Positions 17,279-55,949 are shown, counted from the stretch's first letter. The stretch: 64,000 bases of DNA from Tepidisphaeraceae bacterium (GCA_036267155.1 DATAWP010000082.1:35686-99685), one strand, 5' to 3'. The notes: generated from the sequence alone by a model not told the origin. Program-made: numbers and translations.

Positions 17279-19396
17279 ATGGCCAGCGCCCGTTTCGCCT
17301 GGGGCATCGATATCGGTAATCGTGCCCTGAAGGCAATCAAGCTCGTCCGTGGAGAGGGCGGCCTGCGGATTGATGACTTCGAGGTGATCGAGCACGAGAA
17401 CGTCCTGTCCAACGCGGGGGACAACAAAGAAGCGCTGATCCAATCCGCGCTGGCTAATTTCGTGCAGAGGCATGCGATCAAAGGGGGTGTGGCGGCGATC
17501 AGCGTCAGCGGGGTTTCCAGCTTTGCCCGGTTCATCAAGCTGCCGCCGGTGGAACCCAAGAAGATTCCGGAAATCGTCCGTTTCGAAGCGATTCAGCAAA
17601 TCCCCTTTCCACTGGACGATGTCGAGTGGAGCTACCAGCTTTTTCAGACGCCCGAATCGCCGGATGTGGAGGTCGGCATCTTCGCGATGCGGCGGGAGCT
17701 GGTGAACGCGCACATCAAGCACTTCACGGATGTGGATCTGAACGTGCAGGTCGTGCAGATGAATCCGCTGGCGGTCTACAATGCGATGTATCACGACAAC
17801 CGCTTGCAGGGCACGACGATGATCATCGACCTGGGGGCGGAAAACACGGATCTGATCATCGCGGATGGGGAGACCATCTGGCTAAGGTCGATCCCCATCG
17901 GGGGGAATAATTTCACGGAAGTGCTGGTCAAGAGCTTCAAGTTGCCGTTTAACAAGGCGGAAGACCTGAAGCGGAACGCGAACACGAGCAAATATGCTCG
18001 CCAGATTTTCCAGGCGATGCGGCCGGTTTTTGCCGATCTGGTGGCCGAGATTCAGCGGAGCATCGGGTTTTATTCCTCGGTGCATCGCGAGTCACGAATC
18101 AAGAAAGTCCTGGCCCTCGGCGGCACATTCCGCCTGGCGGGACTGCAAAAATACCTTCAGCAGAACCTGCAACTGGATGTGGAGAAGCTCAATGAGCTGA
18201 CCGCCGGCGCCCCGGCGGATGCCAAGCTGGCGGCCACGTTCAATCAGAACCTGCTGTCGCTGGTGAGCGCTTACGGCCTGGCGATCCAGGCGATGGGCGA
18301 CAGCAAGATCACCAGCAGCCTGCTCCCGATGAAGATTCGCCGGGAGAAGATGTGGAGGGACAAGACCAAGTGGTTCGGCGCCGCCGCGGCAATATTCGTG
18401 CTGGGCACCGGCATGTCTCTGCTGGGTTATTATCTGCGCGATTTGGAATATAAGAGCGCCGCGGACATCCGTGAGAACCGCATTGACCCGATCCTGAGAC
18501 AAGCGACGGACCTTAGCGATGCGTGGAGGGACAAAGTTGAAGGCAACGGCGCGACGGATCGAATGACGATTCAGAATGTGCGGTCCATGCTGGAGGGGCG
18601 CGGCTTATGGATCAATTTGCTGGGGGATGTCTTTGCTTCGCTGCCGCCGGTGCCGACCGGGTATCCCACTGCGGAATACCTTAAGACCCATCCGCGGCCG
18701 ACCCGGAATATCATCCTCATCGATAAGATCGAATCGACATATTATCCCGATCTGCTCCAAGCGCTCACGGCTGCGCCGCCGGAACTTGCAATGGCGCCCG
18801 CCGTGGCCGGTCAGCCGCCGAGCGACCCGGCGATTCCCAGCGGGTCCCGCGGTTTTATCATCACTATCAGCATAACTACGCCGCATAAAGACGGCTTTTT
18901 GTTGGCCCTGACCAGCTTCATCCCGAATTTAAAGAAACATGATCGGGCGGCGATGGATGCGTGGAATACCGCCAACCCAAAGAACCCCAAGACCTATTAC
19001 ATTGCCAAGGTCTCGGCTCCGATGCAGCAGGTCCGGATCAGCGATGACCCGACCCGGATTCAGCAAATGCAGGCTTCGTACACAGACGCTCAGAATCTGT
19101 TGGGCGTGAAGCCGGGCGACCAGCAGCCGGCGGTCAACCCGACGGGCAGATCGCCATACGGCGGTTACGGCGGTCCGCCGGGATATGGCCGCTTCGGTGG
19201 TCTGCCCAGAGGATATATCCCGCAGCCCGCCAACCAGCCGGCGGGAAACGCACCCGGAATGGACAACGGCATGTACATTGATCGCCTGACTCAGGAGGAC
19301 CGCCGTGACGATTGGGAGATGAAGGTAGAGTTGATCGTGGTCATCGATCCATCCCCGCAGGCGCCGGCCGCCCCGGCATCGCCGCAGTCGCCTTGA
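17279..19396 (+). CDS. pilM: type IV pilus assembly protein PilM fused to a TM/periplasmic (PilN-like) extension
   Basis: 705 aa. The N-terminal roughly 340 aa form an actin-like ATPase fold typical of PilM (WGIDIGNRALKAIKL..., GGTFRLAGLQKYL). A TM helix follows (WFGAAAAIFVLGTGMSLLGYYL), then a long C-terminal region with a PYGGYGGPPGYGRFGG tract. Confidence 0.8.
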   Translation: MASARFAWGIDIGNRALKAIKLVRGEGGLRIDDFEVIEHENVLSNAGDNKEALIQSALANFVQRHAIKGGVAAISVSGVSSFARFIKLPPVEPKKIPEIVRFEAIQQIPFPLDDVEWSYQLFQTPESPDVEVGIFAMRRELVNAHIKHFTDVDLNVQVVQMNPLAVYNAMYHDNRLQGTTMIIDLGAENTDLIIADGETIWLRSIPIGGNNFTEVLVKSFKLPFNKAEDLKRNANTSKYARQIFQAMRPVFADLVAEIQRSIGFYSSVHRESRIKKVLALGGTFRLAGLQKYLQQNLQLDVEKLNELTAGAPADAKLAATFNQNLLSLVSAYGLAIQAMGDSKITSSLLPMKIRREKMWRDKTKWFGAAAAIFVLGTGMSLLGYYLRDLEYKSAADIRENRIDPILRQATDLSDAWRDKVEGNGATDRMTIQNVRSMLEGRGLWINLLGDVFASLPPVPTGYPTAEYLKTHPRPTRNIILIDKIESTYYPDLLQALTAAPPELAMAPAVAGQPPSDPAIPSGSRGFIITISITTPHKDGFLLALTSFIPNLKKHDRAAMDAWNTANPKNPKTYYIAKVSAPMQQVRISDDPTRIQQMQASYTDAQNLLGVKPGDQQPAVNPTGRSPYGGYGGPPGYGRFGGLPRGYIPQPANQPAGNAPGMDNGMYIDRLTQEDRRDDWEMKVELIVVIDPSPQAPAAPASPQSP

Positions 19397-22777: not shown

Positions 22778-23056
22778 TCAGAGTTCATCCAACTGTATCC
22801 CAATGCCGCCGCTTTCCCCCGCAAGCTGCGAGGCCGGATATGTCCGCAACCTTTGATTATTCTGCACGGGCCGTGCAATGTGCTCGGGCAATTCCACTCC
22901 CGCTTTCGTGGCACGACGCCGGGCGTTGCGCAGGCGTGACAGAACTGCTCGCCGACTGATGTGCAGCCAGGCGGCAATCTGATTGATGGATGCCTGACGC
23001 CCGTAACGAAGCCAAAGGGCCTCTTGTTGCTTTTCCGTCAGAGCCAGTGAATTCAC
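22778..23056 (-). CDS. small sigma-70 region-4-like HTH DNA-binding protein
   Basis: GTG start at 23056, preceded by AGGAGG (23068-23063) with 6-nt spacing. The GTG overlaps the upstream TGA (GTGA). The product is VNSLALTEKQQEALWLRYGRQASINQIAAWLHISRRAVLSRLRNARRRA..., an HTH of the sigma r4/LuxR type. The longer track ORF (to 23254) has an Arg/Pro-rich, non-protein-like N-terminus. Confidence 0.65.
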   Translation of the reverse strand: MNSLALTEKQQEALWLRYGRQASINQIAAWLHISRRAVLSRLRNARRRATKAGVELPEHIARPVQNNQRLRTYPASQLAGESGGIGIQLDEL

Positions 23057-23487
23057 GCATTTCCTCCTGCTCCTGCCCGGCCGATGAAAACGCTGCCGAA
23101 TCGGGGGCGATCGTTCCGCAGACGAGCCCGTTCTTCGGCGAATTCCGGATCCTCCTCCGCTTCGACCTGGCAATCGAGGGAATAATTCGATTCCCGGACC
23201 GGCCGGGGATGGCGGCGATTGGGGAACAGCGTTCGACACGCGGGGCACGCGCATTGAAAATCCGGAGCGTACGCGGCGCTGCGGTAGAGACAGTCCTCCG
23301 CCCAGGTGGAGGAACAGGCGGTTTCTTCGATTTGGCGGCGGATGTGACGAAGCTGGCGAAGGAGCGTCGTTTCGGGTTCTGATCGGGTCTGACGATTCTG
23401 ATGCCGCCGCCCCAACCTGCCTTCGGCCTCGCCTTCGCTATCCGCATCGACTACTATGTTTGGATTATTTACAACTATTTCCGCCAT
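23053..23487 (-). CDS. hypothetical Cys-rich protein
   Basis: From the ATG at 23487: MAEIVVNNPNIVVDADSEGE... It contains C-x7-C...C-x-C-x2-C (ACSSTWAEDCLY...FQCACPAC). It is translationally coupled to the downstream HTH gene. Confidence 0.55.
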   Translation of the reverse strand: MAEIVVNNPNIVVDADSEGEAEGRLGRRHQNRQTRSEPETTLLRQLRHIRRQIEETACSSTWAEDCLYRSAAYAPDFQCACPACRTLFPNRRHPRPVRESNYSLDCQVEAEEDPEFAEERARLRNDRPRFGSVFIGRAGAGGNA

Positions 23488-23515
23488 CGAAATATCCTCC
23501 ACTGGTGCATCGGAT

Positions 23516-23911
23516 TCAGATTGAGGGCGACGCCGCCCGTCGAGAGGTCAGTTCTCCCCTTCCAAACATTTCCCGCAGCGCCCGATCGCGGTAGCCGATC
23601 CACATCTTCCAAAGCAGCCGGCCAAGTAACTCGCTGGGCGGTGGATCCGCGGATGCCCTGGACAAACCGGCCGCATCCTGGACTTCCAGAAGGGCGTCGC
23701 GTAATCGATCCGCATGGAGATTGACAAAGCGAGCCGAGACGGACTCCTGCTGATTGGCATCGCAGGCGTTCCAGAGGCGGTTTCCGCTGGCGTCACCCAA
23801 CTCATCCGCCGGTCCGTCGCAATCGGCCTGGCGGGTTTCCGCCGGCAAGCCTGGTTGCCAGGCGACGCTCAACCGCGGGAAACGCGCATAGTCCATTTGG
23901 GTTTTGCCCAT
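23516..23911 (-). CDS. hypothetical protein, first gene of operon divergent from repressor
   Basis: The track ORF is 23516..23950. The ATG at 23950 abuts the operator-like palindrome with no room for an RBS, so ATG 23911 (MGKTQMDYARF...) is preferred. No family recognised. Confidence 0.5.
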   Translation of the reverse strand: MGKTQMDYARFPRLSVAWQPGLPAETRQADCDGPADELGDASGNRLWNACDANQQESVSARFVNLHADRLRDALLEVQDAAGLSRASADPPPSELLGRLLWKMWIGYRDRALREMFGRGELTSRRAASPSI

Positions 23912-23950
23912 CGATATTTCCCGAAAGAGACTTGACAATATTCCAATCAT

Positions 23951-23967
23951 ACTCCAAACTTTGGAGT
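23951..23967. promoter_or_regulatory. operator-like palindrome in divergent intergenic region
   Basis: ACTCCAAA-C-TTTGGAGT has perfect 8-bp arms. A further GTTTGGA half-site lies at about 23991-23997 and a TCCAAT at about 23943. The intergenic region 23951-24032 is AT-rich and contains TTGACA at 23932-23937. Confidence 0.5.
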
Positions 23968-24032
23968 AGTCAACGAAAAAGTTAGGTAAATGTTTGGATC
24001 ATCAGGTTTCTCGGATATAAAGAAAGTCGGCC

Positions 24033-24743
24033 ATGGCGCGTGTCACAAAAATCTTCGGCAAACAGCTGACGGAGGCCAGGGAGAAAAAGGCGATGACCCA
24101 AAGGGAACTTGGCGAGGCGATTGGCTGCTCCGATGAAACCATCAGCAGGGTCGAACGCCACGAGGTGGCGGGCATTTGGACCAAGCGTCTTCCGAAATTG
24201 GCGTCAGCGCTGGGTTTGAGCCTTGATGACTTCAAGGCGAGATTCTGCGCAGCGGAGAACTCGCCCGCGATCAATGAGGCGGGGCGGTTGGGAATGTCCG
24301 TTGGCTTGAATATGCGCCGAGCGCGCCCGGTGCGGGTGTTACCGGAGTTCCAGATCGGCATCGCCGCCAGCCGGCGCGTGGACAAATTCTCCGAGCATCC
24401 CGATGCGAACCGGCTGGTGGCTGCCGCCGACCGCCGCGCCTTCGCCGCGCCCGTGGATGGAGATTGCCAACACCCCAAGTGGAAACACGGCGAGATCGTT
24501 GTGTTCAGCTTTGATGCCGCCGAGCGAGAAGGAATCCTGCCGGGCAAATCGTACTACCTCGCTTTTACGGATGGTTCGACGACTTTTAAACGGGTTTTCA
24601 AGGATGAGAAGGATCCCGACGTTTTCGTTCTTCGTTGCTGGAACCGCCGAAAATATCCAGCCGACCAGAGAGTTCATCGCGACGAAGTCGTGCGGATCGC
24701 ACGGGCCGTTTCCAAGCAGGTCGTCGTGGACGAGGATGAATGA
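24033..24743 (+). CDS. CI/LexA-like repressor: XRE-family HTH plus S24 peptidase-like C-terminal domain
   Basis: 236 aa. The N-terminus is MTQRELGEAIGCSDETISRVERHE (XRE HTH). The C-terminus, APVDGDCQHPKWKHGEIVVF...STTFKRVF, aligns by eye with the LexA/CI motifs G-[DNM]-S-M and [TV]-[FV]-K-[RK]-L. Cys145 (TGC at 24465-24467) occupies the nucleophile Ser position. Confidence 0.75.
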   Translation: MARVTKIFGKQLTEAREKKAMTQRELGEAIGCSDETISRVERHEVAGIWTKRLPKLASALGLSLDDFKARFCAAENSPAINEAGRLGMSVGLNMRRARPVRVLPEFQIGIAASRRVDKFSEHPDANRLVAAADRRAFAAPVDGDCQHPKWKHGEIVVFSFDAAEREGILPGKSYYLAFTDGSTTFKRVFKDEKDPDVFVLRCWNRRKYPADQRVHRDEVVRIARAVSKQVVVDEDE

Positions 24744-24882: not shown

Positions 24883-25614
24883 TTACGCGGGACGGCGCTG
24901 TTTAAGCTTCCGTCCCAATCCAATCAAGGCCAGGCCACCGAGGCCAGCCAGACTTTGCCACGCGGCTGCCGGCAGCGGAACGACGTTGCCTGGGCCACCG
25001 GGGCCGGACGAAGACAATTCCTTGAAGGAAAAATCAGATCCGGCCGGTGCGTCAATCAGGAGATTGTCGCCGCTGGCACTTGGATCGCCATTGCCCCAGA
25101 AGGACGTCACGCCGTTGCCTTGGGTTCCCGTATATGCCAGAACCGTATTCCCGGGATTGAGGGATACCGTGCTGTAGTCATACCCCGGTCCGGTCGGCGG
25201 GATGAACGTCCTGCCGACGCTGTCGAAGGTGGCCAGGGTGCTCGTTGTGTTCAACAGAACAAACGAGAACCCGTTGAACGAAGAGCCGGTATTGTTCACG
25301 ATCGTCTCATCCGGAATGACAAACTCCGTCGCAACCGTTCCGGTGTATCCGGCAATGGGCGCGAAGTTGATCTGATATCCCTGATTTGGCGCTGTGAACG
25401 TGGCTGTCTTTTCCAGATCGACCTGGTTGCCGTCCGCGGAATCCTGATTAATCGCCAGGCCGACGCCTGTGCTCCAGGATATATCCCAACCGTCGATTGC
25501 AACCGGGCTCGTATTCTGGATCTGGGCCGCCGGCGCTGACGTCGCACCGAGCATGCCCAATCCGGCGAGAACCGCACCCGCGGCTATCGCAACTTTTCTA
25601 TATCTGCTACTCAT
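24883..25614 (-). CDS. PEP-CTERM sorting-domain secreted protein
   Basis: From the internal ATG at 25614: MSSRYRKVAIAAGAVLAGLGMLGATSAPAA (signal peptide). The C-terminus VVPLPAAAWQSLAGLGGLALIGLGRKLKQRR is a PEP-CTERM-like motif followed by a TM helix and a basic tail. Confidence 0.75.
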   Translation of the reverse strand: MSSRYRKVAIAAGAVLAGLGMLGATSAPAAQIQNTSPVAIDGWDISWSTGVGLAINQDSADGNQVDLEKTATFTAPNQGYQINFAPIAGYTGTVATEFVIPDETIVNNTGSSFNGFSFVLLNTTSTLATFDSVGRTFIPPTGPGYDYSTVSLNPGNTVLAYTGTQGNGVTSFWGNGDPSASGDNLLIDAPAGSDFSFKELSSSGPGGPGNVVPLPAAAWQSLAGLGGLALIGLGRKLKQRRPA

Positions 25615-25721
25615 GTGTACCTCCTTAAAATTAAAAACTTCGGCCGCTATCCAAGTGGCCAACGATCTTCGATACCACATCGTCAGAAGCACGGTCAAGA
25701 CCGAAAAGCTTCTACAACAAC

Positions 25722-26744
25722 CTATAACGAATACCCTGCCGCTTTCAAATTCGCGTAAAGATTGCTCAGAGCCGCCTGAATGTTGGTTACATCCGTTTTA
25801 AGGTTGTTGAGCATGGTTTGCTCGTTGATCGCGTAGGTCGAATTGGCGGTCTGGCTTGTTGTCAGGTTTTGCACGGGATGGACCAAGGTGGCAGACTGGG
25901 GAGGAAACCACGTATACATCTGATACCATATATTGGTGGCACTGGTATTGCCGGAAGTTATGATCGAATATTGCGGAAAGCCGACCACGAATCCCCACAC
26001 ATATGTGCCTTCCGCCAGCGAATTTCGGCTTGCCGCTCCGTATGTTTGCTCCCACTGATTGGTGATCCAGCAATTGTCCACGGTGGGCAAGAACGCCGGA
26101 TTCAGGCTGCTGAGCGGAAATGCATACCCAAAATTGCTCCCGGTGGCGAATTGGCCCTCCACCGTTCGCCCGTAATACACGCCGCCATATGTGCTCTCAT
26201 AAGTGCCGGTAATTTTTGCGATGACGGGAAAAAGCGGCGTGTTGTCGACGTAGACGATGGTTCGTGGATTGGTTTCAGACGTGAAACCCATGACTCGCCC
26301 CACCGCGTACATCATGAACGCCGTGTTGCCCCACAGGAGATGGGTGCCGTTTACATACGGCTCCATCAGATTGATGACCAAGGCGTTATTAACCAAACTC
26401 CCATCGCTATTGGTTTGGGGAGCCGGGCCGTCCGTCGCCGACTGGTTCGTTTGAGCTTGCAACTGAAAATTATTCGATGTGTTGCCGGTGCTGTTGCCGT
26501 AAAGAATGGAACCTTGATACCGCCCGCCTCCGGTTTCCGTGCCGATAATGGCGACCAATGCCAACTCCGCTGGAGTTGATCGCAGACCGATGGTTGTGCC
26601 GCTGCCCCCACCGGTCATAAACAGCGGCGGCATCACCGCCAGCCGATCCAGGCGTTCGATATCCTCCACCATTCGGTTGTACAAATCGGCGGAGAGCGTC
26701 ACGCCGTCGCCTTCGCTGATGTTGGCGCGGGGATAGGGCTTCAA
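25722..26744 (-). CDS. phage tail-associated protein (hub/fibre-like position), hypothetical
   Basis: 340 aa, beta-rich and rich in Gly/Thr/Asn. The C-terminal ...TDVTNIQAALSNLYANLKAAGYSL resembles endings seen in phage fibre/host-specificity proteins. It starts 9 nt after the upstream gene. Confidence 0.45.
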   Translation of the reverse strand: MKPYPRANISEGDGVTLSADLYNRMVEDIERLDRLAVMPPLFMTGGGSGTTIGLRSTPAELALVAIIGTETGGGRYQGSILYGNSTGNTSNNFQLQAQTNQSATDGPAPQTNSDGSLVNNALVINLMEPYVNGTHLLWGNTAFMMYAVGRVMGFTSETNPRTIVYVDNTPLFPVIAKITGTYESTYGGVYYGRTVEGQFATGSNFGYAFPLSSLNPAFLPTVDNCWITNQWEQTYGAASRNSLAEGTYVWGFVVGFPQYSIITSGNTSATNIWYQMYTWFPPQSATLVHPVQNLTTSQTANSTYAINEQTMLNNLKTDVTNIQAALSNLYANLKAAGYSL

Positions 26745-26753
26745 GAGAACTCC

Positions 26754-27575
26754 TTACTGCAAAAGCGGGCTGAGGTCGGCGGTCGGATAAATGGTGCTGC
26801 CGTCGGAGATGCGCGTAACCTGCTGCCATGTCCCAGCCGTGCCGGAACTTTTCGCCGTTGGCTGCAAGAGATTGTTCCACCCGGTAGGAAGGTAGAGGAA
26901 TTTGTAGGTCATGTCCCAGTTCTCCGCCCCCAGCGTGGTCAATCGCCGGTCGGCGTGGGCGCCGTCAAAGAGCACCGTCCCCGCGGCTCCGCCCAGGAAC
27001 GTTGAGGAATTGACGCAACCGGCCAATCCCTGAACGTTTGCCGTGGGCAGCGATGCCAGATTCTTTCGCGTCTGCACGATCGTGACGATCCCCACCCGAA
27101 TCGGCGGGCTGTCCTGCGGCTGCAACGGAGTGCCGTCGGGAAACTGGTACGTCGGCGCGCTCTGCGGCAACGCAACAGTGTGCGTCGCATAGTCCAACGA
27201 CATCGTCCCCGTCGTCACACCCTCGAAATAATCCAGGCTCTTGTACGTGATGCGAAGACGAGCGTATTTGTAACCGACCAACCCATTGGGTCCGACGTTC
27301 AGCCCGTCTTCGCCGGGCAGCCCTTCGACGTGAATCGAATCGAACGGAAGAAACGGCGCATCGGGATAGACCTGCGACGGCGTGTAATAATAATACGCGC
27401 CGATCTCCACCCCGCCGCCGCGAATCTGCTCGATGATCGTGACCCGGTCTTCCCATGCGCACAGCATCGTGCGCACCGCCGTGCTGTTGCCGGTGCGGAC
27501 GAAATTCTCTTCGGTCCCCTCATCCCAGGCTTGCACGCCCAGAAAAGTGATCGCCGTGGTTGAATCGAGCGCCAT
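26754..27575 (-). CDS. phage tail-associated protein (distal-tail position), hypothetical
   Basis: 273 aa. It starts 3 nt after the stop of the upstream gene. It is beta-rich, and no family was recognised by eye. Confidence 0.45.
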   Translation of the reverse strand: MALDSTTAITFLGVQAWDEGTEENFVRTGNSTAVRTMLCAWEDRVTIIEQIRGGGVEIGAYYYYTPSQVYPDAPFLPFDSIHVEGLPGEDGLNVGPNGLVGYKYARLRITYKSLDYFEGVTTGTMSLDYATHTVALPQSAPTYQFPDGTPLQPQDSPPIRVGIVTIVQTRKNLASLPTANVQGLAGCVNSSTFLGGAAGTVLFDGAHADRRLTTLGAENWDMTYKFLYLPTGWNNLLQPTAKSSGTAGTWQQVTRISDGSTIYPTADLSPLLQ

Positions 27576-27578
27576 GGT

Positions 27579-28271
27579 TTAATCCTTCAGGAGTACCAGG
27601 GTCTTGGCATTGGAAAAGACCTTGTCCAGTTTTGTGGCTGCATCACCGAGCTTTCGCAGCATGTCCGAAAGAATTGAAACATCGCCGCCACCCTGCGGAG
27701 CATTAAAATCGGAATTAGCCAATTGCGACGCGGCCGCCAGGCTCGGGGCTTGGGCATTCGTCAACGGCAACGTGTGCGGCATCTCCTGCGGCGCGGCATT
27801 GCGCTCGAATTTTCCCTCATCGGCCGCTGCATTCTGAAATTGGTCTTCCTTTTCCTGCACCGCCGGGATTCGGCCGTTCGATTCCCCTTCCCGGAACTTT
27901 GCCCGATGTGCCGCATCGGATTCGGAATTGGCCGGAACCTGGCTTTGAATCATCTTGAACCCCCGGACGCGCTCTTTATCAGGGAGGTCGATGGATTCTT
28001 CTTGGGAATGGGGCTTGTTTTCCAACTCCTGCCGCCGGGCGACTATGCCATGATTTAGGCCCTGAAGTTGAAGAGAATTGAGGTGGCTGCGATCGTCATC
28101 ATGCTGATTGAGTAACGTTGTGTTCAGTTCCTGGGGACGCGACGAGCGGATCGCGCCCACGTTATTCTTAAGCCTCTGCACGTCCGAATCCGTCGCGTTG
28201 CCCCAATCATCTGTGCGTTGGTTGTCTTGGCCTTGTTCATCCATGGAATTTGTTCCTTTGACGTTTTCCAA
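27579..28271 (-). CDS. hydrophilic Gln/Asp/Asn-rich protein in tape-measure position
   Basis: 230-aa ORF directly after the G/GT-like pair. It is highly polar and has no TM helix. The start may instead be the internal Met at 28244. Confidence 0.45.
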   Translation of the reverse strand: MENVKGTNSMDEQGQDNQRTDDWGNATDSDVQRLKNNVGAIRSSRPQELNTTLLNQHDDDRSHLNSLQLQGLNHGIVARRQELENKPHSQEESIDLPDKERVRGFKMIQSQVPANSESDAAHRAKFREGESNGRIPAVQEKEDQFQNAAADEGKFERNAAPQEMPHTLPLTNAQAPSLAAASQLANSDFNAPQGGGDVSILSDMLRKLGDAATKLDKVFSNAKTLVLLKD

Positions 28272-28318
28272 GTTCGGTTAAACCTAGTTTCGACGCATAC
28301 GCGGAAATGCGATGTACG

Positions 28319-29118
28319 CTATAAGGACCCGGCCGTATAACGTCGAAGGCCGCCTAATACCGATTCAACCGCCGGACTTCGCCCGTCCCCTTCCGCGCAG
28401 ACCTGTACAACCAAATCCCCCGCCGGCATTCGCAGCAAATCGATCGGAAGACATCGCCTGCGATCGACGATGCGATCGAATATCTCATTTTGCCGGATTT
28501 TGATTTCTTCCGCACCGTCTGAATCGGCGACGACATTTAAATCAAACCCCATTGCATGCATGAGCTGCGGCCAAGTCAGCTCCGTCGCCTGGGCGTATGT
28601 CAATCCGAGCCCCTGCGGTCCGGGGCTGGTGAGGTGCGCGAAGATGCCCCGCCAGTCGATGGGGCGTTCGTCCCCGGCGCTATGGGGCCGCTCGCCGCCG
28701 GGGCTGCGGCTTTTTTTGCGGGCTTGTACCCCCACATCGACCATACCGTTCCCACTTTGGCCGCATATTCGCCATCGCACAAAAGCTGTGACGCCTCGGG
28801 CAACGTCAGCTTCGGATGCTTGATCCGCAGCAGAAGCCAGGTCAGAAACGGCGCCGCTGACATCGACAGCGCCCACTGGTCAAACGCGTGTGATCCGTAA
28901 CTGAACGGATGGACGCGCAGATTATCCACGGCCCGCTGATGAATCGCATCGCGAACCGCCGCCGGCAACCCCGCCGCCGATTTCGCGATCCCGCGCAGAT
29001 ATTGGGCGGCGGCTTCCTCTTCCGCTTCGGCGAATTCGATCAGCCGCGGCGGTGACAGCGTATGTCCAGGAAATGCCGACGAATCGCCCAGGCCCACCAA
29101 CTCCTTTAGTTCACTCAT
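28319..29118 (-). CDS. tail assembly chaperone GT-like fusion via programmed -1 frameshift (about 266 aa)
   Basis: ORF 28319..28876 is in the -1 frame relative to 28600..29118 (29118-28876=242, which is 2 mod 3). After a slip at A AAA AAA the reading continues KKSRSPGGERPHSAGDERPIDWRGIFAHLTSPGPQGLGLTYAQATELTWPQLMHAMG... The DW...LGL...LTW.QL pattern resembles the T-domain of HK97/GTA-type tail chaperones. Confidence 0.6.
28600..29118 (-). CDS. tail assembly chaperone, G-like (zero-frame product)
   Basis: 172 aa starting MSELKELVGLGD... It carries the slippery run at codons 134-136 (GCA AAA AAA). It lies directly downstream of the tube-like gene. Confidence 0.6.
   Translation of the reverse strand: MSELKELVGLGDSSAFPGHTLSPPRLIEFAEAEEEAAAQYLRGIAKSAAGLPAAVRDAIHQRAVDNLRVHPFSYGSHAFDQWALSMSAAPFLTWLLLRIKHPKLTLPEASQLLCDGEYAAKVGTVWSMWGYKPAKKAAAPAASGPIAPGTNAPSTGGASSRTSPAPDRRGSD
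28711..28717 (-). promoter_or_regulatory. -1 ribosomal frameshift slippery heptamer A AAA AAA
   Basis: The plus strand reads TTTTTTT at 28711-28717. In the zero frame the codons are GC[A AAA AAA] GCC, which fits X XXY YYZ. Confidence 0.6.
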
Positions 29119-29126
29119 CGGTCACC

Positions 29127-29543
29127 TCAAGATACCGGGGTGTAGCTGCCATTTCCCTTGGCGGTGAAACGCGTGGTGATCTTGCCGTCCACCTTCAGGC
29201 TTTGCGGTGTCGAGTCAACCACGAGCGACGAAAACGTCCAGGCCAACCCATCAAGTTGACCTGCCGCACTTTGATTCAAACACAGCTTCACGTTGGTCAG
29301 GATCGTGCCCGGCTGGATGGAATAGGGCGTTTGGAACGGATTATTCCCAAAATCAAAGTCCACGTCGATGCTTACGCTGCAATCCTTGAACGTGGCTTCG
29401 CGCAGGACATATCCCCCGCTCCTGCTGTTTTTGAATTCGGTCAATTGAGCCGTCGGCTGCACGCTCCAACTAGTGACGGAAAGCTCGTTCGTGCCGAGCG
29501 CGGCGGTGCCGAACGATCCGGAATGAAAAACTGAGGCGGCCAT
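29127..29543 (-). CDS. phage major tail tube-like protein
   Basis: 138 aa and beta-rich (MAASVFHSGSFGTAALGTNELSVTSWSVQPTAQLTEF...VDGKITTRFTAKGNG). Its size and its position immediately upstream of the frameshifted chaperone pair match siphovirus/GTA tube genes. Confidence 0.5.
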   Translation of the reverse strand: MAASVFHSGSFGTAALGTNELSVTSWSVQPTAQLTEFKNSRSGGYVLREATFKDCSVSIDVDFDFGNNPFQTPYSIQPGTILTNVKLCLNQSAAGQLDGLAWTFSSLVVDSTPQSLKVDGKITTRFTAKGNGSYTPVS

Positions 29544-29588
29544 GAAAGACTCCTGTGATGAATTGCTGGGATAAAGGTTATGACCGGC

Positions 29589-30083
29589 TTACGCCGATCG
29601 GCCGAGAATGGTGACCTTGCCCGGCACGTTCACGCCGGAGGCGGCGGAAATCTGCAGCGTGTCGCTGGTTCCAGCCACGACGGAATAGCCGGGATTGGGA
29701 TTGATGACGAAGAACGTCCCGCCATTGGCCTGGGCCGTGCCCTGATCGGTTCCCAGCACCGGATGCGTTCCGCCGCCAACGGTAAAATCCTGTCCTGACG
29801 TCGTGCTGTCATTTTCGACCAATACGGATGTCACATGCACCATTGCCAGGACATTGCCCAGGGGATCGGTCGCCGATGGAAGCGTGATGGTCAGCGGCGT
29901 ACCCGCGCTGACCGTAAACGGTTCGGAAAAACAGCCGTCCACATTCCCGGCGGAATTACCGGCGCCAAGCGTGACGACCGGCTGATGGTTCACCTGTGAG
30001 GAAACCACCGCCGGCGCCGCGCCGGCCGTGAGCTGGCATTTCAATTGGACGCTGGGCTGAGGATTGGAAAGAGTTGTGGCCAT
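29589..30083 (-). CDS. hypothetical beta-sandwich-like protein
   Basis: From the internal ATG at 30083: MATTLSNPQPSVQLKCQLTAGAAP... 164 aa, Thr/Gly/Val-rich, with no signal peptide. Confidence 0.45.
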   Translation of the reverse strand: MATTLSNPQPSVQLKCQLTAGAAPAVVSSQVNHQPVVTLGAGNSAGNVDGCFSEPFTVSAGTPLTITLPSATDPLGNVLAMVHVTSVLVENDSTTSGQDFTVGGGTHPVLGTDQGTAQANGGTFFVINPNPGYSVVAGTSDTLQISAASGVNVPGKVTILGRSA

Positions 30084-30114
30084 TGAGCGGTCTCCAAAGA
30101 ATTCACGGGACGAT

Positions 30115-31203
30115 TCAGCAAAGCGAAGCCAGCCGATCGCGCGCAATGTACATATTGACGCGAATCATCAGCACGCTGACCCATCGCTGTGTCCAGGCTA
30201 CCGTCGCGAACAAATCTGACGGCGGCGCATCGGTGAGTGAAAATGCCGTGCGCGAGGCATGTGCCGAGAAGTTTTGAAAATAGACATCGGCGGCGGGAAT
30301 CGTGTCGTCGGTCGAAGCAGTTGCACCGATCGCATTACACGCCGACGCAGAGCTAAGAGTGCCAGCCATGGCAAAAATGCAAAGGTCGGAAATCAGGTTC
30401 GCGCCCCCAAACGTCATCACCGCCCCGCTGCTGCTCGCGCCGGCGCCGCTGCTGGGGCGAGTGCTGCAAATGATCGTGCCGCCGGTCAATTCGATTTGGG
30501 CCGTGCCGGTCGCCGCGTCTCCGGCGACGAGGTTTAGCGCGTACGTTCCATTAATATCCGCGCCGCTGCTTTTCCAATAACTCGATGCGGTGAGCGATCC
30601 GAGGGTCTGGCTGAGAATCCAGTTGCCGCCGCCGTTGTTCCAGATATACCAATTTTGCTGAACGCCGAAAAGGTACGGGAACCCATTGTAGGTTGCGAAC
30701 CCGCCGGCGGCTTGTGGCGTCATCGAAAATGCGTCTGGAACCGGCCCGGTGAAATTCCCGTCTGCGGCGGTGCCCGATCCAACGAGCGAGATATTGCCGT
30801 GGCAGTTGCCAGAGCCCTTGACGTTCACGCCGGAGGGGACGAAGAGATTTCCAGCGCCGAGATCGAAGCATCCAGCCGAGACCGATACGAGATCGCCGGG
30901 TTGAGCCACGGCCAGCGCCGCGCCGATCGTGGCGAAGGGATACATTCGCGAATAGGCTTTGGCCGTCGAATCATTTCCGCCGGTACAGACAAAAATCGTG
31001 TTGAATTCCGAAACGTCCGGCGGAATCACCGCTTGGGGGAAAACGCCGCCGCTTTGCAGGGCCGGCAGATCGCCGGCGGAATTTCCGACCGTCGCCGCCG
31101 CGGCCGAGCCCAGCCCCAAATTGGTCCGCGCCGTCGCGGCGTTGGCCAGGTCGGAGAGATTGTTGGTCTTCTGAAGGCCCTCCGCCGTGTATGATCCAAG
31201 CAT
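30115..31203 (-). CDS. phage tail fibre-like protein
   Basis: From the internal ATG at 31203: MLGSYTAEGLQKTNNLSDLANAATARTNLGLGSAAA. The NLSDL-x-N-x3-AR-x-NLGLG motif is common at the N-termini of phage tail fibre proteins. The remainder is Gly/Ala/Ser-rich. Confidence 0.55.
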   Translation of the reverse strand: MLGSYTAEGLQKTNNLSDLANAATARTNLGLGSAAAATVGNSAGDLPALQSGGVFPQAVIPPDVSEFNTIFVCTGGNDSTAKAYSRMYPFATIGAALAVAQPGDLVSVSAGCFDLGAGNLFVPSGVNVKGSGNCHGNISLVGSGTAADGNFTGPVPDAFSMTPQAAGGFATYNGFPYLFGVQQNWYIWNNGGGNWILSQTLGSLTASSYWKSSGADINGTYALNLVAGDAATGTAQIELTGGTIICSTRPSSGAGASSSGAVMTFGGANLISDLCIFAMAGTLSSASACNAIGATASTDDTIPAADVYFQNFSAHASRTAFSLTDAPPSDLFATVAWTQRWVSVLMIRVNMYIARDRLASLC

Positions 31204-31284: not shown

Positions 31285-32730
31285 TTATCTAGGAATTCCT
31301 TCGAGTCCCGTGTTCCACCCATCCGGCATGCCCACGATGCTAAAGTTTTTTGTAAATCTGTTTCCCGCAGCGCCGCGCACCACGGCTTGCGCCGGTGTAA
31401 ACGTGGTCGCCCGCCAATCCCATTCGTTGCAGTGTGACGGCCGAGGATTCACGATGGCGAAATCATTGAACGTGTTGCCTGTAGCCTGATCGAGCCAGAT
31501 TCCACAGACGTTGCGCATTTCCCATGATTCAAAGACGTTCCCACTTTGCTGGACGCCGGCTGATTCCAGCCAGATTCCCTCGCCGCCGTCCACATCGAAG
31601 CAGCGAAAGACGTTGTTGCCGCCCGGCGTGTACCAGAGTTCCAGGGCCGCCCCGCGTCCCCCGTGAATCTGGACATAAGTGAACAGGCAGTTTTGAACAC
31701 CGATGCCTTTGGAGTCCTCGGCACTGATGACTTCGTTGGCATTGGTTCCCTGTATGACCCGATCGAAATCGAGCGAGTTGAAATAACTGTTGGTTGGACC
31801 TTGACGCATGACAATCCCGCGGCACGTCAGGTCCCAATTGCAGTTAATGACAGCGTTCTGATCTCCGCCGAGGATCAACTCGTTCATCGACCTCGCGGGT
31901 ACGCCGTGCCACGACATGCCATGGAGCATGGTGTGGCCCGCTGCTAGTCGGCCGCCGCAGTGGATCGTTTCGGTATCCTCAAAAAGGGCGCCGATCGAAT
32001 TGAGGCGCGCAATCTCCACGCTGATGAGCTTCAGCCGCAGAAAATTCGGATTCGTTTCCAGCGATTTATCGAGATAAAAAATGGCGCCCGGGCACGTCGT
32101 GCAATCCACCGTCAAATCGCTGATCGTCCCACCATATCCGCCTCGACCGACAAACAGAATTATGTCCGCGCCATCTTTGGCGTTACGGGTTCTTGTCAGC
32201 ACCACGAGATTCCGGTTCACACCGCGTAAACTGGCCCCCGGCGGTCGGAAAACGCTGTGCCCGATCGTATAGCAGCCCGGCGAAAGAACGACATCCGATC
32301 CCGAATTCCACGCCGCCTGAATCTGCCCGCTGTCATCGCTGCCGCTCGGCGAAAGCACCGTCGTGCGGCGAGGCACCGGCGGAAGACGGACGCTCACGCG
32401 AGTCGCCGTCTTCTGATTACCGATGACCAACCAATAGTTCCCCGCGGGGATTGTCGTCGGCAGCGTCAAGCTGGCGCCATCGCGACTGTCCTCGACAATG
32501 CCCCAGTTGGATGCGTTCAGCGTCACCGAATTACCGGCGGAATCGACCAGCGCATAGCCTTTGGCCGGCAGATTCTCCCTGACACTCCAAATGTAATCCT
32601 CCCCTCCCGGCTCGACCCACTGCCTCCACATGCCGGGATAAACGGCCGCCGGCGGGACCTGGCCATCCGCACCACACGCGACAATTGAATTGACGGCGCA
32701 CACTAAAAAAACCAAAAGCAGCCGCTTCAT
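31285..32730 (-). CDS. secreted right-handed beta-helix (pectate-lyase-fold-like) protein
   Basis: 481 aa. The signal peptide is MKRLLLVFLVCAVNSIVACGADG. Repeated short beta-rung segments carry Asn/Gly/Cys ladders (NCNWDLTCRGIVM, NCLFTYVQIHGG, NVFRCFDVDGGEGIWL). The start ATG overlaps the upstream TAA (TAATG). Confidence 0.6.
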   Translation of the reverse strand: MKRLLLVFLVCAVNSIVACGADGQVPPAAVYPGMWRQWVEPGGEDYIWSVRENLPAKGYALVDSAGNSVTLNASNWGIVEDSRDGASLTLPTTIPAGNYWLVIGNQKTATRVSVRLPPVPRRTTVLSPSGSDDSGQIQAAWNSGSDVVLSPGCYTIGHSVFRPPGASLRGVNRNLVVLTRTRNAKDGADIILFVGRGGYGGTISDLTVDCTTCPGAIFYLDKSLETNPNFLRLKLISVEIARLNSIGALFEDTETIHCGGRLAAGHTMLHGMSWHGVPARSMNELILGGDQNAVINCNWDLTCRGIVMRQGPTNSYFNSLDFDRVIQGTNANEVISAEDSKGIGVQNCLFTYVQIHGGRGAALELWYTPGGNNVFRCFDVDGGEGIWLESAGVQQSGNVFESWEMRNVCGIWLDQATGNTFNDFAIVNPRPSHCNEWDWRATTFTPAQAVVRGAAGNRFTKNFSIVGMPDGWNTGLEGIPR

Positions 32731-34631
32731 TATTTCACCTGAAATCCCGCTTGAATCCAGTTCACCACACCGGCCGCCGTGAGGCGGTCATCCCAGTTGC
32801 CAGGCCAATTGTTCTCCATTGCCGTCATTAGGCTCGGACCGTCGCTCACGCCGATGATCCCCAGTGTCTTGGCGTAGCTGCTGCAAGTGCGCGTATCGTC
32901 AACATACGCCGGCTCCGTCCCCGTCACGCCAGCGACGCCATTTACACCCGGCAACACGACCAGACCACTATAGGCAATCGCCGGCAGCGGCGGCGTGCTC
33001 TGAGAAAGGTTCACCGCATTCGACCCGCTGGCATCAAACCAATTGTGAACGATGACGTTCGGGCCGACAGTGGCGACCGTTGCCTCGGTGGGCATCCCCT
33101 CGGGATTCTTGCCCGAATCGGTGCAGTGAACGCCCACGGCGAATCCGCCGTTGTACTGAACGTCTCCGGCGTCGCTCTTGTTGATGACATACAGATTACT
33201 GATGGAGCCAGTTGTCGCACAGTCCAGATAAGCGCCCCAGCCACGGCCCGTGCCAGCGCCCGCGAGACTCAGCGCCGATCCCACCTGCCCTGAGCCTGTC
33301 GAAGGGTCGAATTCGCCGCCGCCGCCATCCACGACGCAGTTTTGGATCGTCGCCGGAAATCCACCGCCGCCGTAGAACGCGATCGGGTTCGCCAAGGACA
33401 CACAATGGTCAAAGAATCCGCCATAGTTGCTCTCGCAGCCGTCCGCCGCGGCTTCGGCGAACAGGTCGTTGATAAACCGAACCTGGGCATCCGCAGGGTC
33501 GCCGGGGTTGGGATGGTTTGGATTGATATAAACGTCGTGGGCGGTTCCATTGTTGTTTTTCGCGCCGCAGTTGGCGAAGACGCTGCGCGTCACCAAAAAG
33601 TCCCGGATGCTCACGGCGAACAAACCCGCTTGCGTCGCTCCACCGTGGCAGTCGTGGATTGAGCAACCTTCAATGACAAATGCCGTACAGTCGTCGTTGG
33701 CGTCTGTCTCATCATCCTCAAGATCGAAGCCACCCTGGAACCCGCTGGCGGCACAATCGAATATGCCAACGTGATCACTGGACTCTCCGGCAGTCTGATC
33801 CACAAATCGAATAAACCATGATGTTGCCCCCGATCCGGCGGCACCATTCAGGCCATCAATGATGAGATAGTGCATCGGACCGCCCCAGGCATGAGTGCTA
33901 GTGGGCGACCCGGCGATTCCAAATCCACTCTGCAAGATCGGGCGCGGCTGGGAATGATCGAGAAAACCGTTAACACCGATGCGGCCGACGATGAAGGGAT
34001 GCCCCGCCGTTCCCGTGGCTCCCTGAATGTTCTGGTTGACGGCGCTGGCGGGATAAACCCCGCCATCGCGGAACAGGACGCAAAGCGATCCGTTGTTGAT
34101 CGCGGCATTCTGCGCCGAATTGAAATCGGCATAATCGCTCGCCTGGTGTCCCGGTGTCGTCGCCGTGCTGATGATGCAGGCGTTTGCGGGGATCAGCGGC
34201 GTCAAATCGAGATTGCCGTTGGCGTCATATTTGAACGAATCCAGCCACTGGGTTGTGCCGTAAGTTTCGCCGGCAACGCCGGGGAGGCTCGCTAGCCACA
34301 CGGGAAGTCCGCTGGTCTGCCCTGAGCCTGTCGAAGGGGCCTGTCCTGAGCCAGCCGAGGGAGCCTGCCCTGAGCCCGTCGAACCCGATGACGCGGTTGG
34401 CTGTGTCGCCGGAGGCGTCGAGGAACCTGAGTTCCCCCCGCCGTTGGGATTGCCGCCGGTTTGGGTTGCTGTCACCGAAATCGAAAACTGCGTCGTGGCA
34501 GTTGCCACGATGTTTCCGCTGCCGTCGGTGACGCTGCTTCGAATGATATACGTTTGTGCCAATGCACGGGAAACGAAGCAAATCACAAGAATCGCCAGCA
34601 GATGCTTCGGTATTGAAACAGCGACTTTCAT
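32730..34631 (-). CDS. secreted beta-helix-like protein with Ig-like N-domain and Gly/Ser/Gln linker repeats
   Basis: From the internal ATG at 34631: MKVAVSIPKHLLAILVICFVSRALAQ (signal peptide). The STGSGQAP/SAGSGQAP/STGSGQTS linker follows. The later part has beta-helix-like rungs (IEGCSIHDCHGG, NCVVDGGGGEF). Confidence 0.6.
   Translation of the reverse strand: MKVAVSIPKHLLAILVICFVSRALAQTYIIRSSVTDGSGNIVATATTQFSISVTATQTGGNPNGGGNSGSSTPPATQPTASSGSTGSGQAPSAGSGQAPSTGSGQTSGLPVWLASLPGVAGETYGTTQWLDSFKYDANGNLDLTPLIPANACIISTATTPGHQASDYADFNSAQNAAINNGSLCVLFRDGGVYPASAVNQNIQGATGTAGHPFIVGRIGVNGFLDHSQPRPILQSGFGIAGSPTSTHAWGGPMHYLIIDGLNGAAGSGATSWFIRFVDQTAGESSDHVGIFDCAASGFQGGFDLEDDETDANDDCTAFVIEGCSIHDCHGGATQAGLFAVSIRDFLVTRSVFANCGAKNNNGTAHDVYINPNHPNPGDPADAQVRFINDLFAEAAADGCESNYGGFFDHCVSLANPIAFYGGGGFPATIQNCVVDGGGGEFDPSTGSGQVGSALSLAGAGTGRGWGAYLDCATTGSISNLYVINKSDAGDVQYNGGFAVGVHCTDSGKNPEGMPTEATVATVGPNVIVHNWFDASGSNAVNLSQSTPPLPAIAYSGLVVLPGVNGVAGVTGTEPAYVDDTRTCSSYAKTLGIIGVSDGPSLMTAMENNWPGNWDDRLTAAGVVNWIQAGFQVK
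34315..34386. repeat. three tandem ~24-nt units inside CDS (8-aa S-[TA]-GSGQ-x-x repeats)
   Basis: The units are CTGCCCTGAGCCTGTCGAAGGGG, CCTGTCCTGAGCCAGCCGAGGGA and GCCTGCCCTGAGCCCGTCGAACC. The 22-mer at 34317-34338 recurs identically at 33285-33306 in the same gene. Confidence 0.8.
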
Positions 34632-34740
34632 GCGGTCATCCCGTTCTAGCTTTTTTCTTCGCCCCGGCGAGCGTGCCAAATACGGCGGCGCGTGTCAATC
34701 TACGCTGAATTCGAACTTGGCCACTGTCACAATGTTGGTG

Positions 34741-35120: not shown

Positions 35121-35330
35121 CTATGATGGCGCTTGCGGCGTTGCAGTCGCGGCGGAAGCGGCCTGGTGAATCTGGGTAGTTGGGATTGGCTGCTGACCTA
35201 CCAGCGGCGCCAATGTGTTGAGCTGCGTCACGTCGTCGCTGTCAATGACGGCGCTTCCAACGGGAATCTGTGCCGGCTCGGCTTGGATGGCCGCGACAGC
35301 CGCTTGCGCGATAATGCCTACCTGTGTCAT
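35121..35330 (-). CDS. small Ala/Gln-rich hypothetical protein
   Basis: From the internal ATG at 35330: MTQVGIIAQAAVAAIQAEPAQIPVG... 69 aa. Coding status is uncertain. Confidence 0.35.
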   Translation of the reverse strand: MTQVGIIAQAAVAAIQAEPAQIPVGSAVIDSDDVTQLNTLAPLVGQQPIPTTQIHQAASAATATPQAPS

Positions 35331-35512
35331 GTTAAATGCTCCTGTCAATCGAAATTCCAGAACAAGAACGGGAAAACCGCTGCTGCTCCTGCGAATGCCG
35401 TGTTTGTGAAGTTCACCGAGCCGCATCATCGGATAGCCCCGGCGCTAAGGGTTCAACTTGGTCCTCTGTCAAACATTTACCGCACGGAGCGTAGCCGGCA
35501 ATCATCAACGAA

Positions 35513-35899
35513 TCAGCCCGTGTGCTGGGACGTCGGCGATGCGGCGGTGCTGGGCGCAATGTTTGAATTGAGAGTCGTAGCAGCCGCCTGCAAACCCGTC
35601 GTCACCGCGTTCACGGTCTGCTGGGCGCTGGCGCTGGAAGTTGCACTATGTGCAACGATCCCCGCGATCACTCCAACCGCGCCAAGAATCCCCGCAACGA
35701 TCGAGCCCCACGGCGCCGGAGCCGCCGCGGCCATTACTGGCGCCACCGCGCTCGTCACTGCGCTAACAGTGTCGAGCGCCTGAGTCGTCGGATTGTTCGG
35801 AGTCTGCAGAGATGCGCAAGCCGACGCCAGCGACAAAATGGCGACCGTGAATCCCATAATGCTCACAACAAAGATGCGGTTGGTCATAATGACTCCCAA
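35513..35899 (-). CDS. small membrane protein, possible lipoprotein
   Basis: 128 aa. The N-terminal hydrophobic segment ends LSLASAC (lipobox-like, imperfect). A second TM helix (WGSIVAGILGAVGVIAGIVAH) follows, and the remainder is Ala/Thr/Ser-rich. Confidence 0.5.
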   Translation of the reverse strand: MGVIMTNRIFVVSIMGFTVAILSLASACASLQTPNNPTTQALDTVSAVTSAVAPVMAAAAPAPWGSIVAGILGAVGVIAGIVAHSATSSASAQQTVNAVTTGLQAAATTLNSNIAPSTAASPTSQHTG

Positions 35900-36813: not shown

Positions 36814-37509
36814 TCAAGTTCCTCGTCGGTTGCCATACAGTAGCACGTGCAATCTCGGGCAAAAGCGGAACGCTTCCTGCTTGCAAATGTCGCTGACCCA
36901 CGCTGACCGCGCATCCAGTGTCGCCCGGTCCGTGCCCTCGGGCATCAATTGCACATCACTTGGCCGCCACCCCTTGAGCCGTTGCAGCAGATCGCGAATT
37001 TCCCTCAAATCCGCGGGCTGGCAAACGACAAATTTCAACTGAAAATCCGGCGACGTATCCATCAACTGCTGGATCACCTCGACGTTCAGCCGCTTTTCTT
37101 CATGCACGCGGGCAAACCGCCCACCCTCCCGCTCTGTTGGCGTCGAATTCGACAGCTTTGGCGACAGGCTTGCCAAATCCAGCTTCACCACTGCGAAAAC
37201 CGTCGCCGCCGTTTCGACTGTGATGTGATAATTGCGGGCCTTTAGTGCATCACACAGTTCCGCTAGATCCGGCATGATCATCGGCTCGCCCCCCGTGATC
37301 ACCACATGCCTGCCCGAAAACTTTTCGACCCGCTGCACGATCGCACCTACAGGCACATCTTCTCCCTCGGCCTGCCAGCTCGCGTACGGCGTATCGCACC
37401 AAACGCACCGCAAATTGCATCCGCTGGTCCGCACGAACGCCGAGGGAACGCCCATCAGCTTTCCCTCGCCTTGAATTGAAAAAAAGACTTCGGCCAACCG
37501 CACGGCCAC
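36814..37509 (-). CDS. queE: 7-carboxy-7-deazaguanine synthase (radical SAM)
   Basis: 231 aa. [39 protein letters not shown] is the canonical QueE N-terminus with the Cx14CxxC-type cluster. Confidence 0.85.
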
Positions 37510-55914: not shown

Positions 55915-55949
55915 CAACTGTGACCTCAAACGGAAGAACGAAATTGGCT

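Follow-up and report, generated by a model that had tools for sequence, protein, structure and literature searches.

A 64,000-nucleotide stretch of DNA from a Tepidisphaeraceae bacterium (GCA_036267155.1, DATAWP010000082.1:35686-99685; hereafter the window) carries, between housekeeping genes, seven packed open reading frames (ORFs) on the minus strand at positions 25722-31203, next to a phage-type repressor. Comparison with related genomes indicates that this locus is probably the tail half and regulatory end of a phage-like element resident in the Tepidisphaeraceae (Planctomycetota), whose head and packaging genes were lost by a single deletion of ~10 kb. An earlier sequence-only reading of the window had treated the seven genes as a self-contained module. 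We find all seven at those positions, separated by gaps of 3-47 nt, within an element that is wider than the seven-gene block and reaches from ~22778 to ~35899. The proposals made in that reading, namely a stand-alone tailocin, one piece of a dispersed gene transfer agent (GTA) or a domesticated tail-derived machine, find no support, since the locus appears to be a deletion derivative of a complete element present in at least 15 species. In our view it is what remains of a cryptic prophage or defective element, and either the deletion is recent or the remnant is tolerated. The capsid-less organization is accounted for by an ordinary process, internal deletion, and should not be presented as a new tail-derived machine.

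The evidence for this reading begins with the relatives. Related loci (designated by L-numbers) were traced from contigs encoding homologs of the tail tube protein, then by a scan with a portal alignment and by scans of IMG/VR and JGI metagenomes. Scanning GTDB species representatives with the portal alignment yielded 15 loci in 15 Tepidisphaeraceae/Phycisphaerales metagenome-assembled genomes (MAGs), and the IMG/VR and JGI metagenome scans contributed ~45 further fragments with the same gene order. The complete element, ~22-23 kb long, is carried by 15 or more related species represented by Tepidisphaeraceae/Phycisphaerales MAGs. Its order, established by tblastn synteny, starts at the left end with the host genes DUF2203/queE, followed by w128, a secreted β-helix protein (w649 family), variable fiber genes and a gene of 250-285 aa. 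Next come a Mu-Gp36-like adaptor, a ParB-like nuclease (beside which some lineages add a 209-aa gene and DUF5131), an ATPase/GNAT protein (phrog_11143) and a 102-aa gene. The head block comprises TerL, a Mu-type portal, a protease, a 235-aa gene in the scaffold position, a lambda-E-type capsid and a gene that we call g169. The tail block consists of g164, the tube, the chaperones G/T, a gene in the position of the tape measure protein (TMP), a 273-aa gene, a 340-aa gene and, in some lineages, a VPLPA-CTERM protein. The right end is formed by an opposite-strand repressor, a pair of small genes and the gene for a sigma-70 region-4 protein, after which the host genes w637/w462/pilM resume.

The head assignments in the relatives rest on family matches: TerL to phrog_2 (3e-29), the portal to Portal_Mu (PF06074), the protease-like protein to phrog_976, and the capsid to Phage_cap_E (PF03864) and phrog_29. 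The g169 product (163-169 aa) is conserved wherever the element is complete. Upstream of their orthologous tail genes, L003, L007/L008, L009, L011-L025 and most of the metagenome and IMG/VR loci carry a complete head module; in every complete locus the head adjoins the tail, and no relative has them split. DUF2203/queE forms the left flank in the window, L010, L018, L022 and L023, and w637/w462/PilM the right flank in the window, L007, L009, L010, L047, L056 and L068, so that the chromosomal site is the same wherever flanking sequence is visible. A fuller homologous element thus occupies the same site in relatives. In L003 (14280-16690) and L070 (9485-11682), the sigma-70 region-4 end adjoins DUF2203/queE, where the window lineage has its fiber end, which indicates that the whole element is inverted there relative to the same host neighbors. 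A 378-aa protein combining ATPase and GNAT-acetyltransferase regions (L011:7303-8439; phrog_11143, 6e-104) precedes the terminase genes at a short distance in every complete element, and the ParB-like nuclease genes adjoin it.

The deletion is recorded in the first gene of the window locus, a 362-aa ORF (30115-31203, minus strand). The sequence-only reading had called this gene fiber-like. The fiber character of its N-terminus holds up, whereas its standing as a native fiber gene does not. Residues 1-337 (30193-31203) are fiber-derived and carry the N-terminal tail-fiber motif NLSDLANAATARTNLGLG; the PHROG tail fiber match (2.4e-6) falls on residues 7-41, and a weak DUF1565/β-helix match (1.4e-5) accompanies it. 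This motif is common to ~100 otherwise unrelated database proteins, some of which carry fiber Pfam domains, and the database search for full-length homologs of the ORF returned only proteins sharing the N-terminal motif. The last 25 codons and the stop (30115-30192) are a remnant of g169. These 25 residues, TQRWVSVLMIRVNMYIARDRLASLC, match the g169 C-terminus of ~20 loci in the g169 frame, and the counterpart in L025, GTQRWVSVLTIRVSMYMARDRLASLC, is 88% identical to the window stub. L025 is the closest relative found. It keeps its head genes, its 273-aa protein is 97% identical to that of the window, and its tube is 96-100% identical. DNA homology between the window and L025 runs through w649 (to ~32724) and restarts at 30192, the counterpart of the 3′ end of the L025 g169 gene; homology to L025, L023, L021 and L010 taken together restarts at 30192-30194. 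The block from the adaptor to g169 (adaptor, nuclease, terminase, portal, protease, capsid and nearly all of g169) is gone from the window. As read from these alignments, the deletion is ~10 kb long with its junction near 30192. Because the C-terminus of the 362-aa ORF is the g169 C-terminus in frame, the first gene is a chimera made by the deletion, with a fragment of a lost gene preserved at the junction.

A separate deletion has occurred in L010, where a 189-aa ORF has the usual fiber N-terminus (MLGGYIGQFLPLSGG...) at one end and the final ~50 capsid residues at the other. This junction differs from that of the window, and the event is independent. The host gene nth is fragmented in the L010 assembly, so the intactness of L010 cannot be judged from it. 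Among loci long enough to judge, the head module is entirely gone only in the window, of which L001 and L002 are identical copies, and in L010, which makes the head-less state a feature of two lineages among ~30 distinct loci. L003 is damaged in a third way. All that is left of its capsid gene is residues 313-372, joined behind the initial 114 aa of the 235-aa gene (L003:8264-8787), and nothing of the G/T/TMP segment remains between the tube and a 269-aa gene (L003:10417-10484). The L003-type structure recurs in several contigs (L004, L005 and L036).

We searched the window for the missing genes with the proteins of the relatives. None of their TerL, portal, protease or capsid proteins has a homolog in the 64 kb (tblastn, E≤1e-5), and no integrase was present among the ORFs sampled, in agreement with what had been noticed from the sequence at the outset. 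An ordinary intact prophage is ruled out, as the window lacks head genes. No tRNA genes were found in the window, and no convincing att-like direct repeats flank the element. The flanks are likewise those first described: on the right a PilM_2 gene (17279-19396), and on the left a radical-SAM QueE-like gene (36814-37509) and an HhH-GPD Nth-like gene (37530-38216). Other housekeeping proteins among the larger window ORFs sampled include PheS, UbiD, a MiaB-like protein, FtsK, MutL, TrpA/B, IlvD, SpoU and PilM. The same arrangement was recovered identically from a second dataset, SRR11836411, besides sample 3300036820, and the head-less allele is therefore not an assembly artifact.

What remains of the structural genes is supported as a tail module at its core, the tube and the chaperone pair, with the remaining assignments being positional. 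The 138-aa protein (29127-29543, minus strand) is supported as the tail tube (major tail) protein by predicted fold and remote homology. Its AlphaFold2 model, with a predicted local distance difference test (pLDDT) score of 74.5, has as its best Foldseek match in the PDB the tail tube of siphophage vB_DshS-R4C (8gtb_A; E 4.7e-4, template-modeling score 0.53-0.56), so that the structure search proposed in the sequence-only reading did return a tail fold. Nearly all of the next matches are tube/Hcp-fold proteins or phage tail, neck or baseplate parts, including Hcp and the diffocin, AFP, monocin and RcGTA tubes; the RcGTA tube stands among the weak tube-fold matches, at ranks 28 and 45. A profile search of 1.84 billion representatives retrieved 255 remote relatives, some of which match Pfam Phage_tail_2, Phage_TTP_11 and Phage_tube_2 or PHROG major tail families. 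Close homologs number 31 (57-91% identity); none carries a Pfam domain, and the few with a named source are from Tepidisphaeraceae/Planctomycetota MAGs. Against PDB sequences the tube profile gave a weak Hcp1 match alone (E 0.28), and the GenBank phage collection held no match to the tube.

Between the tube and the TMP-position gene lies a 172-aa ORF (28600-29118, minus strand), the zero-frame product of which is assigned as tail assembly chaperone G. It contains the slippery heptamer A AAA AAA (28711-28717) in the X XXY YYZ register, ~35 codons ahead of the G stop, and a -1 shift at this site opens the T extension (28319-28717) to give a 266-aa G-T fusion; the -1 frame stays open for 130 codons past the slip site. 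A conserved -1 slip between tube and tape measure is the classical signature of the tail chaperones G/GT in long-tailed phages. Such heptamers are no rarer or commoner in the window than expected (9 observed versus 8.95 expected), and it is the conserved position, rather than the presence, of this one that carries weight. The site falls at the same codon (~134) in 19 of 20 distinct orthologous loci, where the -1 frame stays open for 98-136 codons, and this conservation persists despite a synonymous divergence (dS) of 0.5-1.5 in these genes. The slip-linked pair proposed in the initial reading is thus borne out. A weak homolog of the L011 "T" ORF was detected by tblastn in related loci, and neither G nor GT matches a sequence family in Pfam, NCBIfam or PHROG. 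Together, these features support the 172-aa and 266-aa products as putative tail assembly chaperones G and G-T.

The initial reading had further likened the gene order to that of siphophage tails, with a short tape measure, a distal tail protein and a hub after the chaperones. Of this proposal, the tube and G/GT stand, and the other three roles are positional, unconfirmed by profile or fold searches. The gene following G/GT (27579-28271, minus strand) encodes 230 aa from a TTG start (221 aa in the JGI call) and is a tape measure candidate from its position after G/GT only. Its product is polar, finds no match in family scans and shows conservation confined to the C-terminal ~80 aa, where it shares 46-53% identity with the C-terminal ends of far longer genes from L013, L025 and L035. 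The length of this gene varies from 126 aa in L011 (16595-16975) through 221-230 aa in the window to 419-424 aa in L009 (11825-13084) and L010 (12378-13652). If it truly encodes the tape measure, tail length would vary severalfold among close relatives.

The 273-aa protein (26754-27575, minus strand) is a distal-tail candidate. None of its 47 homologs carries a Pfam domain, and the few with a named source are Tepidisphaeraceae MAG proteins. Its AlphaFold2 model is poor (pLDDT 61.7), with a best PDB fold match that is not significant (E 0.067); in BFVD it matches uncharacterized Caudovirales proteins (E 3e-4 to 1e-3), and hhalign detects no similarity between its family and the tube family. The 340-aa protein encoded by the last tail gene (25722-26744, minus strand) is a candidate tail-tip or central-fiber protein with 48-80% identity across related elements, a coiled-coil-like C-terminal segment and a weak PHROG head-fiber match over its C-terminal 30 aa. 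It has no match in the GenBank phage collection, and neither the 273-aa nor the 340-aa profile matches any PDB sequence. Directly upstream of the tube gene, g164 (29589-30083, minus strand) encodes a β-rich protein of 164 aa that is kept at 62-86% identity in all related elements and is, by position, a neck or tail-terminator candidate. It matches phrog_22694, a family of unknown function (1.7e-10). The g164 family shows no similarity to the tube family by hhalign, and its profile gives one weak, apparently irrelevant match to PDB sequences (a glucanotransferase, E 0.082).

Across these proteins, scans of Pfam, NCBIfam and PHROG return nearly nothing beyond the fiber N-terminal motif, phrog_22694 and weak major-tail hints; six of the seven have no Pfam or NCBIfam match, and none matches a GTA family in these two databases. 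The tube fold and the G/GT slip site are those of a non-contractile tail. No ORF between 22.7 and 35.9 kb matches a sheath or baseplate family and, judging by the gene sizes at the locus, there is no room for a sheath gene. No locus gene matches an endolysin or holin family in Pfam, NCBIfam or PHROG.

The regulatory end of the element is retained. The adjacent repressor noted in the initial reading is present at 24033-24743 on the plus strand. It is a 236-aa CI/LexA-like protein that combines an HTH_3 domain (PF01381, 1.8e-8) with a weak Peptidase_S24 match (0.009), matches the phrog_4 transcriptional repressor family over residues 6-209 (5e-14), and is kept in every related element. Divergent from it on the minus strand runs an operon (22778-23950) encoding proteins of 144 and 149 aa and then a 92-aa sigma-70 region-4 protein (22778-23056; Sigma70_r4, 8e-7; PHROG sigma factor, 4e-6), which on sequence grounds is a candidate late-gene activator. 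The order of this early operon is conserved in L003, L007, L009, L010, L047, L052 and L056. Within 23946-24033, an 82-bp spacer between the repressor and the divergent operon holds a promoter-like TTGACT-16-TATGAT (23973-23946), and the layout resembles a phage genetic switch. Across the locus, a scan for promoters and terminators gave counts near or under the shuffled expectation, and the single notable site is the one between the repressor and the early operon. If the circuit still fires, inactivation of the repressor would release the early operon with its sigma-70 region-4 activator, which would in turn switch on the late operon. The cell could then build at most assemblies of tube, TMP and tip, lacking g169 and bearing a fiber with a replaced C-terminus; capsid formation and DNA packaging would be impossible from the window locus.

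We also examined how selection has acted on the retained tail genes. All are full length and free of stops and frameshifts, the kind of decay that the initial reading had named as a sign against an intact module. Pairwise ratios of nonsynonymous to synonymous divergence (dN/dS, ω) against relatives range from 0.04 to 0.2. In a three-taxon decomposition that took L025 as the sister and one of L035, L021, L023 and L050 as the outgroup, the terminal branch of the window has a dS of 0.16-0.23 and an ω of 0.07-0.12, and the head-bearing sister branch an ω of 0.09-0.12. The tail genes give no sign of relaxed selection, as would be expected if the deletion came late on that branch or if the tail is still under selection; the data do not separate the two.

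The complete parent element shows features of long residence. Between the flanks in the relatives we recognized no integrase, transposase or replication genes. Between the window and L010, dS is 1.1-1.5 for DUF2203, QueE and w190, and 1.1-1.2 for the tube and the 273-aa gene, so that element genes have diverged on the same scale as flanking host genes. The protein identities of element and flanks show a positive, weak correlation (r 0.3-0.7, n 6-10) that we take as suggestive. These values suggest that the parent element is vertically inherited. The fixed site, the lack of recognized integrase or replication genes, purifying selection and the pairing of an HTH_3 repressor with a sigma-like protein fit a long-resident, possibly domesticated element, which we would describe as PBSX- or GTA-like in its logic; repeated recombination with related phages may also have contributed. 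The portal of the relatives is ~22% identical to its nearest GenBank phage matches (portals of Bacillus phages), the GenBank phage collection contained no closely related phage, and our literature search returned no paper on GTA or prophage elements of the Tepidisphaeraceae. As an uncharacterized lineage and a candidate for domestication, in a phylum whose phages have hardly been studied, the parent is of more interest than the remnant.

Several observations weigh against regarding the window locus as a mere deletion remnant. Stops, frameshifts and raised dN/dS, the decay predicted for a remnant, are not seen; intact tail genes with so low an ω are what a still-selected module would show, and a recent deletion would look alike. 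The head-less allele occurs in two datasets and so has some presence in the population, two independent lineages (the window and L010) lost the head and kept the tail, and the search for head genes spans 64 of the 149 kb of the contig, so that head genes may lie elsewhere in the genome. The intact tail genes, the two datasets and the second head loss, together with the conserved slip site, the retained regulators and the absence of relaxation relative to the head-bearing sister, would suit an exapted F-type tailocin, in which selection keeps the tail after loss of the head and particles controlled by the CI-like repressor and the sigma-70 region-4 protein kill or affect competitors. The parent would then be a vertically inherited domesticated particle system, at a fixed site and under purifying selection over dS above 1, and its head-less derivative would have been selected as a non-contractile tailocin. 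We consider this unlikely. Loss of the head is a rare, derived condition, no more than dS ~0.5 separates the window from its closest head-bearing relative, the crude fusion junction replaces the fiber C-terminus and removes g169, no lysis cassette was recognized at the locus, low ω is equally explained by a recent deletion, and the fragmented nth of L010 weakens the second case. Given the chimeric junction and the head-bearing close relatives, an evolved stand-alone tailocin was set aside as the primary reading. Were a selected tailocin from a domesticated parent nevertheless the truth, a phage-like element would have been caught in the course of becoming a tailocin, in Planctomycetota.

A dispersed GTA-like system, in which the head and packaging genes have moved elsewhere in the genome and work with the tail locus as RcGTA does with its accessory loci, appears very improbable. 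It would draw on the apparent vertical inheritance of the parent, its want of recognizable integrase or replication genes, a regulatory layout like that of GTA- or PBSX-like domesticated elements, and the 64-kb span of the head-gene search. However, the 25-codon g169 stub fused to the fiber gene is the signature of a simple deletion rather than a translocation, no relative shows a split arrangement, and the RcGTA-type families of Pfam and NCBIfam are unmatched. The empty Pfam and NCBIfam scans for six of the seven proteins and the poor 273-aa model, which lacks a significant PDB fold match, could also be taken to mean that these are unrelated hypothetical genes alike to a tail module in size and order. 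That idea is effectively refuted by the tube fold with its transitive family matches, by the conservation of the -1 slip site and by the relatives, in which these genes always follow the portal, protease and capsid genes. A remnant left by internal deletion thus accounts best for the locus in our judgment, and the two independent head-removing, tail-sparing deletions with clean fusion junctions offer a starting point for work on the origin of tailocins from complete elements.

Comparison with known systems places the locus among defective prophages. The Rac, e14 and Qin elements of Escherichia coli are cryptic or defective prophage remnants that arose by internal deletion. Like them, the window locus has a partial phage gene set where relatives carry a fuller element, a chimeric junction ORF, no capsid or packaging capacity and a retained repressor; unlike them, it derives from a parent without a recognizable integrase that is apparently vertical across at least 15 species, and its retained genes are undecayed. 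The tail resembles lambda/HK97-type tails in its tube/Hcp-fold tube, its X XXY YYZ slip site, the order of tube, G/GT, next gene and tip genes, and the lack of a sheath. It differs from them in that G/GT and the TMP-position, 273-aa and 340-aa proteins have no detectable sequence-family membership, the TMP-position gene is short, polar and length-variable (126 to over 420 aa), and the adaptor gene of the element lies far upstream, beside the fiber genes. As in F-type tailocins (the F-pyocins of Pseudomonas and the Listeria monocin), head-less tail genes stand beside a repressor and between housekeeping genes, and the monocin tube is one of the many tube-fold proteins that the tube model matches. 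Tailocin loci, in contrast, are conserved across strains as head-less units with lysis cassettes, whereas here the head-less form is a rare derived allele and L025 has head genes.

The parent resembles PBSX and RcGTA in its conserved chromosomal position across species, its full head-plus-tail set, purifying selection, the lack of recognized integrase and replication genes, and its HTH_3 repressor with a small sigma-like protein. This last pair is reminiscent of the Xre/Xpf pair of PBSX. Unlike these systems, the parent shows no sequence homology to PBSX or RcGTA families, its head being of the Mu-portal/lambda-E type, and in the window copy the head genes are entirely gone.

The remaining element genes lie outside the tail block. 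At the left, DUF2203-proximal edge, w128 (35513-35899, minus strand) encodes a small lipoprotein- or transmembrane-like product, homologs of which adjoin DUF2203, ahead of the β-helix gene, in L010, L018, L022, L023 and L027. Between w128 and the β-helix gene is the small ORF w102 (35121-35429, minus strand), which is called as a gene in L001/L002; family scans returned no match for w128 or w102. The first large gene of the element, w649 (32730-34679, minus strand), is conserved and encodes a signal-peptide-bearing, possibly β-helical protein with tandem GSGQAPS-type repeats (34317-34386). Homologs with 37-62% identity stand at the corresponding place in L010, L016, L018, L021-L023, L025 and L035, and its positional counterpart in L011 matches Beta_helix and a PHROG tail spike family. 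Next to it, w481 (31285-32730, minus strand) encodes a variable signal-peptide-bearing protein that has no match in family scans; the one homolog found is in L025 (48% identity). The N-terminal signal-peptide-like segments of w649 and w481 are unusual for virion proteins. With identities to L025 of 62% and 48%, respectively, versus 97% for the 273-aa protein, these two genes have diverged much more quickly than the core of the tail. The gene lying between the tail block and the repressor (24883-25698, minus strand) may be a passenger. Its 271-aa product ends in a VPLPA-CTERM-like sorting signal (weak TIGR03370 match), and homologs are found at the same position in L009, L010, L018, L022, L023, L025, L047, L052 and L056 and not in the L011 lineage. 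Elsewhere in the window and unrelated to the tail locus, a 356-aa protein with an Imm33-like immunity domain (56242-57312) adjoins a 1382-aa FtsK/SpoIIIE-domain protein (51781-55929).

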